DNA of 9,483 bases from a virus (Duplodnaviria > Heunggongvirae > Uroviricota > Caudoviricetes), in the IMG/VR virus record IMGVR_UViG_2778261058_000006, positions 1 through 9,483 of that record; one strand, given 5' to 3'. Positions 414-9,043 of this stretch are shown here, one piece after another (within the stretch, counting starts at the first letter, position 1; each line of letters starts with the position of its first letter). The translations under genes were made by a program, and so were the position numbers. Under the pieces are notes generated by a model. The model saw nothing but the letters and a program-made list of their open reading frames with translations, had not been told where the DNA came from and did no database searches.

Positions 414-674
414 TCACTCATCTTCAAAAGCAGAAAAACCAGCCTTAAGCCCAGCTTCTTTCAGAGACTGCAATGATGTGACAAATTCATTTTCACGCAA
501 AATAAAACCATCCGTCACCAGTCCATCCACAAAGTAAATTAACGCCGCCCCACTCTTCCTTTGTTGAGACTGTAAACATTTAATACGGCAGTGGCTGACA
601 ATAGCGCCATTCTCAACGCGCACAGTATAGAGGCCATCTTCACTAAAAATTTCAACCAATTCTTCGATTTTCAT
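414..674 (-). CDS. Hypothetical small prophage protein (86 aa)
   Basis: ATG at 674..672 with a GGAAGGA SD about 9 nt upstream (the ORF-track start at 677 is TTG). Clean ORF downstream of the hok terminator. It sits where rem lies in K-12 Qin, but identity was not verified. Confidence 0.5.
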   Translation of the reverse strand: MKIEELVEIFSEDGLYTVRVENGAIVSHCRIKCLQSQQRKSGAALIYFVDGLVTDGFILRENEFVTSLQSLKEAGLKAGFSAFEDE

Positions 675-863
675 CAACAGAATCCTTCCAGATAAATAGC
701 ACTCCCCTGCTCGGGGTCCATCCCTCTTCTCCCTGCGCGCTACTTAAGAGCCTCGATTCTAGCCGTGAAGACATACCGATCAACAGCAATAAGCCACCTG
801 AATAACAGAATCAGCCAGCCACATCAGTACAACCAGATGCATCATGCTCACCGAAAATAAACA

Positions 864-955: not shown

Positions 956-1111
956 TTACTCCTCAGGTTCGTAAGCTGTGAAGACAGCGACCTCCGTCTG
1001 GCCGGTTCGGATTCGTACCTCGCAGAGGTCTTTCCTCGTTACCAGTGCCGTCACTATGACGGTTAAACAGATGACGATCAGGGCGATTAACATCGCCTTT
1101 TGCTGCTTCAT
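956..1111 (-). CDS. hokD: Hok/Gef-family type I toxin (51 aa, single-TM membrane peptide)
   Basis: Translation MKQQKAMLIALIVICLTVIVTALVTRKDLCEVRIRTGQTEVAVFTAYEPEE matches my recollection of E. coli HokD/RelF and is close to HokC/Gef. AAGGAG SD 9 nt upstream of ATG 1111..1109. In-frame upstream GTG at 1138 gives a Mok-like 9-aa extension (MPKGKEKQA). Confidence 0.85.
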   Translation of the reverse strand: MKQQKAMLIALIVICLTVIVTALVTRKDLCEVRIRTGQTEVAVFTAYEPEE

Positions 1112-1380
1112 AGCCTGCTTCTCCTTGCCTTTCGGCACGTAAGAGGCTAATCTTCAGTTGTCGAGACATAAGACTGGCCTCACTTCGATTTATAGTCGGG
1201 TGGGGCTTTTCTCTATCTGCCTTTGGTGGCATGCCCGAGACAGATAGCCTCAAGCACCCGCAGCAATTCTACTTAACTCTCCTTTTCCCGCAAACCGTTT
1301 TTATCCCCAACGGCAATTCGAATACACTACCAGCGCCACCGCCAGTGCAATTCCTACCGTTGTGAATGCTTCAGGCCAGG

Positions 1381-6460: not shown

Positions 6461-6983
6461 ACGAACCCCAGACAGATATTTGTTTATCTGCAAAGTAATG
6501 TTGGTATTGCTGACGATACGCATGCTTGAAAGCAATAGCTTTTTCTATAAGCTCGTCAGTCTCACGTTCCACAACAGCTGGATCCGCAAAAAGCAGCCCG
6601 GACTCCACCACATCGCCATATTCTTTGTTTAACCCGGCGATCATGTACGTAATGCTTTTTCCGTCAGTAATTTCACAATACAACCTGAAATCGCTGATCC
6701 GGATAGCCTCCATAATTGCCGGAATCAGCGCCGTGAATTTTTCCCGCTTATCCCTGGTGTCGATAGCTTTCCAGCGTTCAAATATTTTCACCCGGTTAAC
6801 GCCCAGTGCCCGTTGATCAACCGCGCCATCATCAAACGTGACGCGTTGAACATCAATGTTCGGGCGTTCTTTCAGAGCCCAGAATGCTTCCGTGATTAAT
6901 ATCGTCGCCTGCTCCTGTGTCATTCCTGGTCGGCATACCCAGGAATCCAGAGCCTCACAAGCCTGTTCAGGGGTGATTTTCAT
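6432..6983 (-). CDS. Hypothetical protein in the cII position of the early operon (183 aa); possible regulatory protein
   Basis: ATG 6983..6981 overlaps the 3' end of the DicC-like gene by 17 nt; its own 3' end overlaps the O-like gene. Weak SD; an alternative start is ATG 6923. Confidence 0.5.
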   Translation of the reverse strand: MKITPEQACEALDSWVCRPGMTQEQATILITEAFWALKERPNIDVQRVTFDDGAVDQRALGVNRVKIFERWKAIDTRDKREKFTALIPAIMEAIRISDFRLYCEITDGKSITYMIAGLNKEYGDVVESGLLFADPAVVERETDELIEKAIAFKHAYRQQYQHYFADKQISVWGSYEYRCTTMG

Positions 6984-7195
6984 TGTTCAACCGCCCCGCA
7001 CGCTTTGCCTTACGATATTCGTCATAAACTTTGGGATCGTACTGAAGCTCCCCGCCGGATGCCTCCTGTAGACGCATCGCGCGACCTTCAGGAACCAGTT
7101 CCCCCCATGCAGCAATGCTTGCCAGCCTAACTCCTGCGGCATTGGCAATGCTTTGTTTTGCTGCCAAAAAACGCTATAGCATCAATTTTCAACAT
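6967..7195 (-). CDS. dicC: DicC-like (Cro-analogue) repressor with an apparent +1 frameshift near the 5' end; possible pseudogene
   Basis: Strong AAGGAG SD plus ATG 7195..7193 opens a frame encoding MLKIDAIAFFGSKTKHCQCRRS, then stops. The conserved body (...AAGVRLAS...GRAMRLQEASGGELQYDPKVYDEYRKAKRAGRLNNENHP) is in the next frame, which has a stop at 7176..7174 and only a TTG at 7167 without SD. Confidence 0.6.
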
Positions 7196-7271
7196 ATCGA
7201 GCTCCTTAGATTTTCCTAAGGAAACTAGATCGTAGAGAAACCTAAGTCAAGAAAAATTAGAATTCCCTAAT
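7196..7271. promoter_or_regulatory. Divergent promoter/operator region between the DicC-like and DicA-like genes
   Basis: Perfect palindrome TCCTTAG-N6-CTAAGGA at 7203-7222, overlapping the DicC-like SD. Palindrome ATTAG-N6-CTAAT at 7256-7271, abutting the DicA-like ATG. Extra CCTAAG at 7241-7246. Confidence 0.5.
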
Positions 7272-7679
7272 ATGAAAAACGAAACCTTCGGTGCTCGCCT
7301 CTTACATAGGCGTAAAAAATTAAAACTGTCTCAGGCCGCATTAGGTAAGCTGGTCAAAGTGGCTCACGTAACAATTTCTCAATGGGAAAGAGATGAAACA
7401 CAGCCGGCGGGGAAAAGATTATTCGCACTGAGCCAAGCGCTTCAGTGCTCACCGACTTGGCTTCTTTTTGGGGATGAAGATAAACAACCAGGCGAACCGA
7501 TCCCGGATAATCAGCCAGCCATTCTGACAGAAGATCAAAAAGAGTTACTTCAACTGTTCGACGCACTGCCTGAGTCAGAGCAAAAAGCCCTGTTGTCAGA
7601 GATGCGTGCTCGAGTTGAAAATTTCAACAAACTTTTTGAAGAACTACTCAAAGCTCGCAAAAGAAGCGCAAACAAATAA
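7272..7679 (+). CDS. dicA: DicA-like HTH (Xre/cI-type) prophage repressor, 135 aa
   Basis: N-terminal HTH (LSQAALGKLVKVAHVTISQWER) and a C-terminus resembling recalled DicA. Divergent from the Cro analogue. No SD upstream, so possibly a leaderless-type start. Confidence 0.85.
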   Translation: MKNETFGARLLHRRKKLKLSQAALGKLVKVAHVTISQWERDETQPAGKRLFALSQALQCSPTWLLFGDEDKQPGEPIPDNQPAILTEDQKELLQLFDALPESEQKALLSEMRARVENFNKLFEELLKARKRSANK

Positions 7680-7744
7680 TCCCCTTTTTTCTCCACACCC
7701 TGTAATAAAAAGCACAAACTTTCAAACACTTGTGTTTTTTACAT

Positions 7745-7810
7745 CAAAAAACTTAGGTTTTTCTACATAAAAACCTTGACCACCCACCTTAGGTTATTCT
7801 AAATTTCATT
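7745..7810 (+). promoter_or_regulatory. Putative DicA-controlled promoter/operator for the ydfA-B-C operon
   Basis: Direct repeats CTTAGGTTTTTCTACA (7752-7767) and CTTAGGTTATTCTAAA (7788-7803) flank a TTGACC -35-like hexamer (7776-7781). They share a CTTAGnTTnTTC core with the operator palindrome at 7203-7222. The -10 element is not cleanly identifiable. Confidence 0.4.
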
Positions 7811-7881
7811 CATCAAGACACCGCACGGTGTTCTCAGCAAACAGTTCCGCCACCCCGGCGTTAAGGGGAAATGAGGTCAAC

Positions 7882-8037
7882 ATGGATACTATCGATCTTG
7901 GCAACAACGAATCTCTGGTGTGCGGCGTGTTCCCCAACCAGGACGGTACGTTCACCGCGATGACATATACCAAAAGCAAAACGTTTAAAACCGAAAATGG
8001 TGCCCGTCGCTGGCTGGAAAGAAACTCAGGTGAGTGA
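7882..8037 (+). CDS. ydfA: YdfA-like small prophage protein (51 aa)
   Basis: ATG 7882; MDTIDLGNNESLV... matches recollection of Qin YdfA. Position and size fit the Qin gene order. Confidence 0.7.
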   Translation: MDTIDLGNNESLVCGVFPNQDGTFTAMTYTKSKTFKTENGARRWLERNSGE

Positions 8038-8038
8038 T

Positions 8039-8167
8039 ATGGATTTCGACGCAATCATGAAAAAGGCTTACGAAGAATACTTCGAAGGCCTTGCTGAAGG
8101 CGAAGAAGCTCTCAGCTTCAGTGAGTTTAAACAGACGCTTTCCAGTCCGGCAAAATCTAACGGCTGA
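8039..8167 (+). CDS. ydfB: YdfB-like small prophage protein (42 aa), absent from the ORF track
   Basis: ATG 8039, 1 nt after the ydfA-like stop. Hand translation MDFDAIMKKAYEEYFEGLAEGEEALSFSEFKQTLSSPAKSNG; stop TGA 8165-8167. Confidence 0.6.
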   Translation: MDFDAIMKKAYEEYFEGLAEGEEALSFSEFKQTLSSPAKSNG

Positions 8168-8196
8168 TAGGCGAAGCAGCACCGCGAGGAATCAGT

Positions 8197-8415
8197 ATGC
8201 AGAAACGAGAACCCGTCATCATCGCGCCAGACTATACCGATGATGAACTTTATGAGTGGATGCGCCAGAAAATTAATGCAGCGCAGGACCTGAAATGGGC
8301 CAATGAAGCCAGGGCTAAGCAGGCTGAAAATCTGTCCGCTCTGGAGCAGGATATCACCAGGCTGGAAAAAGCGGCGGCATTAAGCATTGCCAGAATGATT
8401 ACATACCCACGTTAA
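8197..8415 (+). CDS. ydfC: YdfC-like small prophage protein (72 aa)
   Basis: GAGGAA SD then ATG 8197. Size and position fit the Qin gene order. Confidence 0.7.
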   Translation: MQKREPVIIAPDYTDDELYEWMRQKINAAQDLKWANEARAKQAENLSALEQDITRLEKAAALSIARMITYPR

Positions 8416-8437
8416 TAGCTAACCAACGAGGCTAATA

Positions 8438-9043
8438 ATGGAATTTAAAGATTTACCAAAAGAAATCCAGACAATTGCTGCAACGACTCTCGGTGATAGC
8501 CTGGTGAAAATTGACCCCGCATGCACCAAAAAAGAAACCATCGATAATATGGTTCGTAATGTGCGCAATGCTTTTTCTGGGCTATATGGTTCTGATAATC
8601 AAAAGCAGGAAAGCGATGTTAATGAACGGGTAATTTCTGTTTGCCTGAATGGCCATGTTCTTTCATCAATCAAAACAGAAACAGCGACAGCCATCGATTA
8701 CCTTTGCATTGTACAGAGCCTTTTTGATGCCCTGTTTCGTTCAGTGAATTTAAAAAATGATGCAAATCTGCGAGGGCGCACAATAGCACATTCATATGCA
8801 CATACTTTAGGCTCTGTGGATGTTAAAAATAATACCCTGCAAGTTACTCTCGAACATTCACCGCAAGAGTTGAAAACGGAAAAATACGATGCAAATAAAA
8901 ATAATAACGATAAACCTGATTTGTTTATTATCAGCTCAAAGCTACTGGAAGTCATGAAGAGCGAGCTTGAGAAACACGACATCAAGCCCACTCCTGTATA
9001 TTTACGATGGATAATGAAGATTATTGATGCTTCTCTGCCATAA
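8438..9043 (+). CDS. Hypothetical protein (201 aa), AT-rich accessory gene of unknown function
   Basis: ACGAGG SD about 8 nt upstream of ATG 8438, 22 nt after the ydfC-like stop. Uninterrupted ORF to TAA 9041-9043. Codon usage is visibly AT-rich (many AAA/AAT/GAT), roughly 35-40% GC by eye. No match to anything I recognise. Confidence 0.6.
   Translation: MEFKDLPKEIQTIAATTLGDSLVKIDPACTKKETIDNMVRNVRNAFSGLYGSDNQKQESDVNERVISVCLNGHVLSSIKTETATAIDYLCIVQSLFDALFRSVNLKNDANLRGRTIAHSYAHTLGSVDVKNNTLQVTLEHSPQELKTEKYDANKNNNDKPDLFIISSKLLEVMKSELEKHDIKPTPVYLRWIMKIIDASLP

Follow-up and report, generated by a model that had tools for sequence, protein, structure and literature searches.

In this study, we identified five copies of an 18-bp imperfect palindrome with the core TTAG-N6-CTA(A) in a 9.5-kb stretch of viral DNA (9,483 nt, hereafter the window). 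We consider it likely, with a probability of about 0.72, that they are the operators of a prophage immunity switch of the Qin/P22 type. Three of them (O1, O2 and O3) are located between the divergent dicC-like and dicA-like genes, and two (OB1 and OB2) are placed around the TTGACC -35 hexamer of ydfA. The statistics of the motif, its conservation, its co-variation with the repressor and its positional homology with the Qin switch of Escherichia coli K-12 are seen here, and repression, autoactivation, the leaderless mRNA and the effect of Rem are carried over from experiments in K-12. The motif is real but ordinary, and this type of switch is already well described in E. coli K-12.

The operator-like motif

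The pattern TTAG-N6-CTA has eight strand-matches in the window, all of them intergenic and all belonging to the five sites, against 0.6 expected, and none of 200 dinucleotide-preserving shuffles reached this count. The sites are confined to two intergenic regions of 76 nt and 202 nt (278 of 9,483 nt), which has a probability of about 2e-8 under uniform placement. On a half-site weight matrix the five sites scored 18.9-22.0 bits and the runner-up 18-mer in the window 9.2 bits, a gap that is partly circular because the matrix was made from the five sites themselves. By this matrix there is neither a third site at the ydfA promoter nor any further site in the window. O2 and OB1 each contain one degenerate half-site (CTAC) and are 94% complementary to each other, i.e. 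near-identical in opposite orientation. The operator-like motif is thus well past chance. The repeats might instead have arisen by chance or from the composition of AT-rich promoter DNA, or remain from a recombination event, and have no regulatory role; both intergenic regions are AT-rich, and short two-copy repeats are common in the window. However, this explanation is hardly credible in view of the shuffling result, the clustering of all five sites, the invariance of the cores amid variable adjacent bases and the co-variation of the sites with the repressor HTH described below.

A preceding sequence-only reading of this DNA had proposed a different unit, CTTAGnTTnTTC, as a core present in three copies. 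This core occurs exactly only twice in the window; the copy at 7205-7216 differs from it at one base, with TCC in place of TTC, and the earlier reading had overlooked a fourth copy, also with a single mismatch, on the minus strand (7235-7246). When one mismatch is allowed, four matches are obtained against 0.64 expected, and 1 of 200 shuffles gets to four. On account of the two exact matches and these borderline one-mismatch statistics, CTTAGnTTnTTC was dropped as the repeat unit and the palindromic TTAG-N6-CTA was adopted, so that the former count of three plus one becomes five sites of the inverted repeat, with O2 as one that had escaped notice. The segment 7203-7222 (TCCTTAGATTTTCCTAAGGA) had been called a perfect palindrome; this is true of its 7-bp inverted arms but not of its 6-bp centre. 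Its overlap with the SD of the dicC-like gene (AAGGAG at 7207-7202, minus strand) was confirmed. The direct repeats CTTAGGTTTTTCTACA (7752-7767) and CTTAGGTTATTCTAAA (7788-7803) likewise lie on either side of TTGACC as described, and ATTAG-N6-CTAAT is present at 7256-7271, adjoining the dicA-like ATG at 7272.

Table 1. Positions of the genes, candidate operators and predicted promoter elements in the window.
Feature	Position	Strand	Sequence or elements	Remarks
rem-like gene	414..677	minus		candidate antirepressor acting on the DicA-like protein; homologue of K-12 Rem (72% identity)
dicC-like gene	6967..7195	minus		P22_Cro/DicC family; +1 frameshift
O1	7204..7221		CCTTAGATTTTCCTAAGG	best palindrome; counterpart of K-12 Oc / P22 OR1
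dicC-like promoter (predicted)	7222..7250	minus	-35 TTGACT 7250-7245, 17-nt spacer, -10 TAGTTT 7227-7222	PR analogue
O2	7230..7247	minus	ACTTAGGTTTCTCTACGA	one good and one degenerate half-site; counterpart of K-12 Om / P22 OR2
O3	7255..7272		AATTAGAATTCCCTAATA	counterpart of K-12 Oa / P22 OR3
Candidate dicA-like -10	7258..7263	plus	TAGAAT	5/6 matches to TATAAT; recognisable -35 absent; read from sequence
dicA-like repressor gene	7272..7679	plus		135 aa; P22 C2-like N-terminal HTH and DicA-type C-terminal domain
Hairpin	7706..7741	plus	A-tract/stem/T-tract	after the dicA-like stop; -9.6 kcal/mol, z = -3.2
OB1	7751..7768	plus	ACTTAGGTTTTTCTACAT	precedes the -35 of the ydfA (dicB-type) promoter
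ydfA-operon promoter (predicted)	7776..7805	plus	-35 TTGACC 7776-7781, 18-nt spacer, -10 TAAATT 7800-7805	dicBp/PL analogue
OB2	7787..7804	plus	CCTTAGGTTATTCTAAAT	over the spacer and -10 of the ydfA-operon promoter
ydfA	7882-8037	plus		
ydfB	8039-8167	plus		
ydfC	8197-8415	plus		
201-aa ORF	8438-9043	plus		phage ORF of unknown function

Genes and predicted promoters of the proposed switch

The dicA-like product matches NF007257 ("transcriptional repressor DicA") over residues 1-135 of 135 with 237.3 bits (cut-off 101), which identifies it as a full-length member of the DicA subfamily, and it is 62% identical to K-12 DicA. It has a Pfam HTH_3 match, and its residues 2-69 correspond to the N-terminal domain structures of P22 C2 (1ADR and 2R1J; E = 1e-21). 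No Peptidase_S24 domain was found in it with Pfam, and its length is 135 aa compared with 216 aa for C2. On these matches it is not an SOS-inducible repressor of the C2/cI type, though the locus would work like P22 immC.

The sequence-only reading was right that the dicA-like gene has no SD: GGAG, GAGG, AGGA and AAGG are all absent from the 20 nt before its ATG (AAAAATTAGAATTCCCTAAT). Another start codon with an SD was considered and rejected, since no possible start lies between the preceding stop and 7272 and the alignment pairs residue 2 with residue 2 of P22 C2. O3 ends on the A of this ATG and includes the candidate -10, TAGAAT, which sits 8 nt ahead of the ATG; the same place is taken by TAGAAT, TAGCAT or TAAGAT in other immunity types. 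A third site abutting the repressor ATG is likewise found in K-12, P22 and all the other immunity types. Transcription of the dicA-like gene is predicted to start at about 7269-7272, leaving a leader of 0-3 nt, and the TAGAAT near an ATG without SD is consistent with a leaderless mRNA. In K-12 the dicA mRNA is leaderless, with a leader of <10 nt (PMC4681348).

The dicC-like gene had been given a start at 7196, but its start codon is 7193-7195. An extra T at 7149 shifts the frame and brings a stop after 22 codons; with this T removed, a 75-aa DicC is restored. The intact dicC allele of a related locus (L001) scored 167.9 bits against NF007282 DicC (cut-off 130) and matched PF14549 P22_Cro. The Cro analogue is a frameshifted pseudogene in the window. 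Its predicted promoter corresponds to the K-12 dicC promoter TTGACT-17-TATCTT, which was mapped by 5'RACE (PMC3441716). O1 lies directly downstream of the -10, over the start site predicted at about 7214-7216 on the minus strand, and overlaps the SD, and its position is that of K-12 Oc in the alignment; O2 spans the spacer and 3 nt of the -35. Of the three promoters, a consensus scan detected only that of ydfA; the dicC-like and dicA-like promoters were placed via alignment with K-12 and P22.

On the other side of the repressor gene, K-12 has the identical TTGACC and the same layout at its dicB-type promoter, with TGTTAGCTATAGCATACA as the counterpart of OB1. OB1 and OB2 are 36 bp apart, centre to centre, in the window. 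Transcription from the ydfA-operon promoter is predicted to begin at about 7811-7813. The hairpin between the dicA-like stop and OB1 is retained with altered stems in divergent loci and is probably a terminator that would shield the ydfA promoter from dicA read-through. The genes from 7882 to 9043 match DUF1391 and phrog_751, 2061, 1744 and 1363. No terminator-like site was found between ydfA and the 201-aa ORF, which lies on the same strand as ydfC after a 22-nt gap, and these features suggest that the ORF is co-transcribed with ydfABC. This ORF follows ydfC; an Rfam search at the gathering threshold found no DicF in the window, sok being the only match. The dicB gene may lie beyond the window, which ends 1.07 kb past ydfC, as dicB is 1.16 kb past ydfC in L001. 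LexA boxes were also sought, near the rem-like gene and elsewhere; the four matches in the window do not exceed chance, and none of them is close to rem, so that SOS control of the antirepressor is unsupported.

Conservation and co-variation with the repressor

Across about 100 related loci the operator cores are nearly invariant and the neighbouring bases variable. The comparison used 22 unique sequences of the dicC-dicA region and 46 of the dicA-ydfA region; invariant columns make up 35 of 40 in the cores but 15 of 118 in the intergenic DNA outside the operators (Fisher p = 5e-18). Among the 22, the TTAG and CTA(A) columns of O1 are invariant or nearly so (>=90%). Among the 46, OB1 and OB2 are almost invariant, OB1 overlaps no recognisable promoter element, and variability in the region is highest in the 6 nt that separate the -35 from OB2. 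A second scan of viral contigs, made with the family alignment, yielded largely the loci already found and a few additional divergent members.

The same CCTTAG...CTAAG sites are present in relatives whose proteins are only 69-86% identical, on other prophage backbones and in Enterobacter. In these relatives the HTH is identical or near-identical, LSQAALGKLV[K/Q]VAHVTISQWERDETQP, allowing for minor variants. The positions of the sites are also kept in other immunity types, where the half-sites change together with the recognition helix: TGTTAG..CTAACA accompanies TQR...SHVSVSQWE in K-12, and ATTGAG..CTCAAT accompanies VSGSSISLWE. The distance of 35-36 bp between OB1 and OB2 is kept in four immunity types with different half-sites. 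The motif search in related loci that the sequence-only reading had proposed as a check thus found the sites in the orthologous regions, with co-change elsewhere.

Within about a dozen immunity types there is an apparent pattern in the flanks, Arg going with TG-TTAG, Ala with CC/AC-TTAG and Asn with AT-TGAG, and another in the cores, HVT/SxSQW going with TTAG and SxSISLW with TTGAG. These patterns lead to a tentative and, as a whole, rather doubtful hypothesis in which the operator flank tracks the residue that follows the invariant Gln in helix 2, the core tracks helix 3 and autoactivation works by eviction of RNA polymerase. If it were true, the immunity groups of Qin-like prophages would be predictable from sequence, and the frameshifted Cro analogue would lock the element of this lineage in the immune state.

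Co-variation also bears on the proteins that use the sites. In the absence of DicA, YjdC is able to regulate DicA targets, as cited in PMC11430063, and H-NS/Cnu antagonises DicA at the K-12 locus (PMC3441716), so that the sites might be bound mainly by another protein, such as one of these host factors, with the repressor acting elsewhere. It is very improbable that this is the case, since the half-sites change with the HTH of the phage repressor across immunity types while the host is unchanged, binding at K-12 Oc requires dicA (PMC3441716) and the palindromic 18-bp geometry fits the P22 C2 operators.

A further alternative, which we regard as unlikely though less so, is that only O1 and OB2 are true repressor operators and that O2, O3 and OB1 are conserved as promoter elements or as sites of the Cro analogue. 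In an in-vivo rpsL assay, K-12 Om and Oa were not bound by DicA when cloned alone, and only Oc was bound (PMC3441716). Moreover, O3 holds TAGAAT and the start codon, O2 overlaps TTGACT, O2 and OB1 each have the degenerate CTAC half-site, and O3 is nearly unchanged across immunity types that differ in their O1 flanks but have near-identical DicC proteins. However, OB1 is upstream of the -35 and on no promoter element that could be recognised, yet it is almost invariant, and its distance to OB2 is retained while half-sites differ. O2 and OB1 are 94% complementary despite their different promoter contexts, and the K-12 assays on isolated sites would miss cooperative binding. Because K-12 Om and Oa showed no binding alone, O2, O3 and OB1 may need cooperativity, may serve the Cro analogue or may be partly conserved for the promoters. 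The reading that all five sites are operators is the one that we follow below.

Proposed mechanism

In the proposed switch, the DicA-like repressor, assumed to be a dimer like the P22 C2 repressor, would fill the most symmetrical sites first. Occupation of O1 and OB2 would turn off the Cro-analogue/replication operon and the ydfABC-ORF201 operon. Cooperative binding would probably fill the weaker sites next to them, O2 at 26 bp and OB1 at 36 bp; the distance of 36 bp corresponds to about 3.4 helical turns, which is not obviously in phase for cooperative binding and counts against this step. The repressor mRNA would start 0-3 nt before the ATG from a promoter formed by the TAGAAT inside O3 without a -35. 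It and the dicC-like promoter would stand back-to-back, their start sites separated by about 55 bp. By occupying O1 and O2, the repressor would activate its own promoter, whether through direct contact or because RNA polymerase is cleared from the competing promoter; the "activation" of dicA may thus be an eviction of RNA polymerase rather than an activator contact of the lambda kind. Excess repressor at O3, or the Cro analogue in intact relatives, would turn the dicA-like promoter off. Because the repressor has no S24 domain, induction would not proceed by RecA cleavage but via the Rem-like antirepressor. The Cro analogue is frameshifted, and therefore the switch should lean to the repressed state. 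In K-12, deletion of dicC reduced the frequency of spontaneous switching from 1.16% to 0.04%.

That one repressor controls its own gene, the Cro analogue and the ydfABC operon had been put forward in the sequence-only reading. The homology and the alignments support this interpretation, which restates a known system, the published model of K-12 Qin. The value of the present results is mainly one of annotation, as they assign predicted positions, exact to the base, to the operators and promoters of a common, probably heteroimmune DicA/DicC switch. Enterobacter carries switches of this type, as do many E. coli prophages, among them the ompW prophages of O157-type strains. Qin-like prophages control toxic cargo such as DicB and DicF. 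The consensus CCTTAG-N6-CTAAGG was not found in print in the literature searched. The K-12 model generalises, and the understanding of how the switch operates is unchanged. From the comparative set, it may be possible to predict which Qin-like prophages share an immunity group and which are cross-immune.

Comparison with known switches

The locus in the window is the DicA/DicC switch described in K-12, in a variant with its own operator specificity (CCTTAG...CTAAGG). Both have the gene order ydaT-like, dicC, then dicA, ydfA, ydfB and ydfC, a 135-aa repressor of the DicA subfamily, a Rem homologue, three sites at equivalent positions between the divergent genes (Oc, Om and Oa in K-12) and two sites flanking a TTGACC -35 with a spacing of 35 bp in K-12 and 36 bp in the window. 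The repressor ATG abuts the third operator and is without SD in both, and K-12 Oc (TTGTTAGTCATAACTAACAA) shares the TTAG-N6-CTAA core with O1. In K-12, Oc binds DicA in vivo in a dicA-dependent manner, and an A-to-C change in CTAA abolishes binding (PMC3441716). Both dicC and dicBp are repressed by DicA, which its own promoter also requires (PMC3441716; PMC10448788); the repression of dicBp is 22-fold and Rem derepresses dicBp 165-fold (PMC10448788). ChIP-seq of K-12 DicC showed binding on both sides of dicA with the motif TT(A/C/T)G...C(G/A/T)AA (PMC11430063). The two switches differ in operator flanks and spacers (CCTTAG..CTAAGG in the window, TGTTAG..CTAACA in K-12) and in HTH residues (QAALGKLVKVAHVTISQ and QRSLAKALKISHVSVSQ, respectively), and as judged from these sequences they are probably heteroimmune. 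Unlike K-12, the window has a frameshifted dicC, a terminator-like hairpin after dicA and a 201-aa ORF after ydfC, with neither dicF nor dicB found in the covered part of the operon.

P22 immC resembles the window in an N-terminal HTH of C2 that is about 60% identical to the dicA-like HTH domain, a Cro analogue of the P22_Cro family, three 18-bp operators spaced 23-26 bp from one another, a TTGACT -35 of the PR type located between operators two and three, and an OR3 that ends at the c2 ATG as O3 does at the dicA-like ATG. The half-sites are related (ATTTAAG / ATTAAAG in P22, CCTTAG in the window), whereas the operator geometry differs, with TTAG arms and a 6-bp centre in the window and TTAAG arms and a 4-bp centre in P22. 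The leftward operon of P22 begins with gene 24 (N-like), and its analogue in the window with ydfABC. The window repressor, unlike P22 C2, is without the C-terminal S24 autoprotease domain and therefore should be controlled by an antirepressor and not be RecA-cleavable.

Lambda has the same overall plan: its divergent repressor and cro genes are separated by a tripartite operator, and more operators are clustered at its other early promoter. The lambda repressor promoter, which has an acceptable -10 but a weak -35, requires the repressor itself, and the mRNA made from it begins at or beside the AUG, as is predicted for the window. The DNA-binding specificity of lambda is unrelated to that of the window. 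The second promoter of the window has only two sites, which flank the -35, whereas those of lambda cover it, and the third operator is about 10 bp nearer to the start codon than in lambda. The divergent start sites, which lie 82 bp apart in lambda, are predicted to be about 55 bp apart in the window, and the switch of the window, unlike that of lambda, would operate without SOS cleavage.

Candidate operator sites and promoters

The motifs quoted in the sequence-only reading lie where it had placed them: TCCTTAGATTTTCCTAAGGA at 7203-7222, CTTAGGTTTTTCTACA (7752-7767) and CTTAGGTTATTCTAAA (7788-7803) on either side of a TTGACC hexamer, and ATTAG-N6-CTAAT (7256-7271) adjoining the ATG of the 135-aa ORF. 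The shared core CTTAGnTTnTTC, which had been counted three times, has only two exact copies, as the one at 7205-7216 reads ...TCC; with one mismatch allowed, a fourth copy, overlooked in that reading, appears on the minus strand at 7235-7246. In the supposedly perfect palindrome at 7203-7222, the 7-bp arms match perfectly and the 6-bp centre is not palindromic. The true repeat unit is the inverted repeat TTAG-N6-CTA(A) within an 18-bp site. TTAG-N6-CTA gave 8 strand-matches, representing five sites, against 0.6 expected, and 8 was reached in none of 200 dinucleotide-preserving shuffles. All five sites are confined to two intergenic regions: candidate operators O1, O2 and O3 between the dicC-like and dicA-like genes, and OB1 and OB2 around the -35 of the ydfA promoter (table). 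A half-site weight matrix scored them at 18.9-22.0 bits and revealed no sixth site in the 9.5-kb window (next best 18-mer, 9.2 bits); the matrix was derived from the same five sites, so that this gap mainly expresses the absence of a sixth. O1 and OB2 are the most symmetrical, while O2 and OB1 have one degenerate arm each and are near-identical in opposite orientation (94% complementary).

Features of the switch region and of the genes around it
Feature	Position	Strand	Remark
rem homologue	414-677	-	87 aa, antirepressor homologue
sok antisense RNA	1106-1259	-	Rfam RF01794, 120 bits
dicC-like gene	6967-7195	-	extra T at 7149
O1	7204-7221
dicC-like promoter, -10	7227-7222	-	TAGTTT
O2	7230-7247	-
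dicC-like promoter, -35	7250-7245	-	TTGACT, 17-nt spacer
O3	7255-7272
dicA-like promoter, -10	7258-7263	+	TAGAAT
dicA-like gene	7272-7679	+	135-aa repressor
HTH coding region	7332-7385
Hairpin	7706-7741	+	after dicA-like stop
OB1	7751-7768
-35-like hexamer	7776-7781		TTGACC
OB2	7787-7804
ydfA-operon leader	7811-7881	+	~70 nt
ydfA (DUF1391), ydfB, ydfC	3' of dicA-like gene	+
201-aa phage ORF	8438-9043	+	directly after ydfC

O1 adjoins the -10 of the dicC-like promoter. The dicA-like gene had been described as lacking an SD, and indeed no SD-like tetramer is present in the 20 nt 5' of its ATG (AAAAATTAGAATTCCCTAAT); clear SDs precede its neighbours, the dicC-like gene (AAGGAG) and ydfA (GAGG). 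Its near-consensus -10 lies within O3, 8 nt before the ATG, and is not accompanied by a -35. This fits a leaderless, activator-dependent promoter, and the transcription start predicted at ~7269-7272 is consistent with a leaderless mRNA. Other immunity types (loci grouped by repressor HTH and operator half-sites) and K-12 have TAGAAT, TAGCAT or TAAGAT at the same position, and retention of this hexamer inside O3 may be the reason that O3 varies less than O1 between types.

Possible RNA elements around the ydfA promoter

The hairpin that follows the dicA-like stop consists of an A-tract, a 12-bp stem and a T-tract (-9.6 kcal/mol, z = -3.2). It is kept in divergent loci with altered stems and a similar TTTCAAA loop, whereas K-12 lacks it. 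It probably acts as a (bidirectional) terminator that separates dicA from the ydfA promoter. All immunity types have the ydfA leader (CATCAAGACACCGCACGGTGTTCTCAGCAAACAGTTCCGC...) in conserved form, and Enterobacter and Citrobacter have it in diverged form. It ends just 5' of the ydfA SD in a 4-bp hairpin, CCCC-GGCGTTAA-GGGG, with compensatory changes in two of the four pairs; some distant relatives have at this position CCCG-GAAAGA-CGGG, which is boxB-like in appearance. The leader could mark a mosaic boundary where transcription starts, or it could have a function as an RNA element.

Repressor, Cro analogue and neighbouring genes

Over its full length, the 135-aa protein falls in NCBIfam NF007257, 'transcriptional repressor DicA' (237 bits; cut-off 101), and it is 62% identical to K-12 DicA. 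A Pfam search gave HTH_3 as a domain and no S24 peptidase, and residues 2-69 align with the N-terminal domain of P22 C2, a solved structure (E = 1e-21). The divergently transcribed gene is of the DicC / P22_Cro family but is frameshifted by the extra T, with a stop after 22 codons; removal of T7149 restores a 75-aa DicC. Of 79 IMG/VR loci whose repressor ORF was usable, 2 carry the same allele (L041 and L084). An intact gene of 70-77 aa was found in 75 of the 82 sequences examined (78 of 80 fetched, 4 genome loci and the window).

No terminator-like site was found between ydfA, ydfB, ydfC and the 201-aa ORF. The N-terminal 130 residues of the latter match phrog_1363 (function unknown) and its C-terminal 40 match other PHROGs, with no match in Pfam or NCBIfam; at this position the related loci L001 and L004 carry different cargo, hypothetical proteins of 109-124 aa. 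Leftward lie a YdaT-like gene and replication genes. The product of the rem homologue is 72% identical to K-12 Rem, an antirepressor by which DicA repression is relieved. No LexA box was found near or upstream of the rem homologue. The sok RNA marks a hok/sok-type toxin-antitoxin module, and K-12 Qin has hokD at the matching relative position. By this gene content, the window is the early part of a lambdoid prophage of the Qin-like kind. Among complete E. coli genomes, the best match is 97.6% over the 1.6-kb core, and none matches the whole window.

Conservation and co-variation of repressor and operators

We collected 8 loci from E. coli, 21 from species-representative genomes and ~90 from IMG/VR. 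E. coli-type dicA loci, identical or nearly so to those of E. coli, also occurred on MAG contigs assigned to Collinsella, a Bacillota bacterium and Veillonella parvula (L012/L019/L021), which are most likely mis-binned Enterobacteriaceae prophage contigs. The motif proved to be conserved in orthologous regions, a check that the sequence-only reading had proposed. Relatives that share the window-type HTH gave 22 unique sequences for dicC-dicA and 46 for dicA-ydfA. In these, 35 of the 40 columns in the TTAG/CTAA cores are invariant, compared with 15 of the 118 intergenic columns outside the operators (Fisher p = 5e-18). The most variable bases of the dicA-ydfA region are the six between the -35 and OB2, and OB2 itself is almost fixed. 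An identical or near-identical HTH, LSQAALGKLV[K/Q]VAHVTISQWERDETQP with small variants, is kept in proteins that are only 69-86% identical overall, and their loci, Enterobacter included, keep CCTTAG...CTAAG sites at the same places despite different dicC genes and different downstream DNA.

In other immunity types the site positions are kept, and the half-sites are altered along with the recognition helix: TGTTAG..CTAACA accompanies TQR...[S/A]HV[S/T][V/I]SQWE (K-12, E. albertii, Citrobacter and Rahnella), TGTTGAG..TTAACA accompanies S[H/Y]A[T/S]ISLWE, and ATTGAG-N4-CTCAAT accompanies SGSSISLWE. Joint change of this kind classically marks the repressor-operator pairs of mosaic lambdoid immunity regions. 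The bases at operator positions 1-2 go with the residue that follows the invariant helix-2 Gln (TG with Arg, CC/AC with Ala, AT with Asn), and helix 3 tracks the core (HV[T/S]xSQW with TTAG, SxSISLW with TTGAG). This is an apparent specificity code of the DicA family, drawn from sequences that may share ancestry. A mosaic junction lies inside the operator region itself: at 7241-7270 the window shares CCTAAGTCAAGAAAAATTAGAATTnCCTAA, comprising half of O2, the dicC-like -35 and O3, with the immunity type of L005/L006/L010/L011, in which O1 (TGTTAGATTTTTCTAACA) and the -10 region differ and DicC is nearly identical.

Discussion

O1 and OB2 are likely to be the primary repression sites, since they are the most symmetrical and lie at the -10/start regions of both outward promoters. 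Filling of O2 and OB1 would probably depend on cooperativity, and occupancy of O3 would block the dicA-like promoter, whose -10 lies inside it. The alternative in which O1 and OB2 are the only true repressor sites has appreciable weight, as the K-12 counterparts of O2 and O3 (Om and Oa), cloned singly, were not bound by DicA (PMC3441716). K-12 Oc, TTGTTAGTCATAACTAACAA, has the same TTAG-N6-CTAA core as the window sites; it binds DicA in vivo, and binding is lost on an A-to-C change in the CTAA arm (PMC3441716).

In K-12, a tenfold drop in DicA derepresses dicC 700-fold, and the dicA promoter, which has no recognisable consensus, needs DicA for activity (PMC3441716). Deletion of dicA raises dicBp, the counterpart of the ydfA promoter, 22-fold, and Rem induces it 165-fold (PMC10448788). 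Just five mRNAs of E. coli K-12 were found to be leaderless, that of dicA among them (PMC4681348), and PMC8794815 also lists it as such. In ChIP-seq, DicC bound most strongly to the DNA flanking dicA on either side, and its motif pairs TT(A/C/T)G with C(G/A/T)AA (PMC11430063). These results on DicA, Rem, the leaderless mRNA and DicC make the one-repressor model of the sequence-only reading the textbook model for this locus family. Since transcription of the dicC-like and dicA-like genes is predicted to start at points only ~55 bp apart, it may be speculated that the 'autoactivation' of dicA in K-12 could come from relieved competition between the promoters and not from a contact of the lambda kind. 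Spontaneous dicBp switching in K-12 falls from 1.16% to 0.04% without dicC (PMC10448788). Given this phenotype (~30-fold less switching), the frameshifted dicC-like gene should stabilise repression, and by analogy its lineage probably stays locked in repression.

The window, K-12 Qin and P22 immC share one architecture. Read towards the repressor gene, the start codon and SD of the cro-type gene are followed by operator 1, which adjoins the -10, then by the -10 itself, a 17-nt spacer under operator 2, a TTGACT -35 and operator 3 ending at the repressor ATG. On the 3' side of dicA, both the window and K-12 have an operator, TTGACC and a second operator covering the spacer and -10, with centres 36 bp apart in the window and 35 bp in K-12. 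Neither dicF nor dicB was found within the window, which ends 1.07 kb past ydfC, whereas in L001, the closest relative, dicB lies 1.16 kb past ydfC. The window-type operator sequences were not found printed in the literature searched. The locus shows the sequence-testable features of a Qin-type DicA/DicC switch and is, on this comparison, best called a probably heteroimmune member of that type with its own operator sequences. It is a known kind of switch and will not surprise the specialist: it would work like P22 immC, but its repressor, having no S24 domain, is not of the SOS-cleavable C2/cI type.
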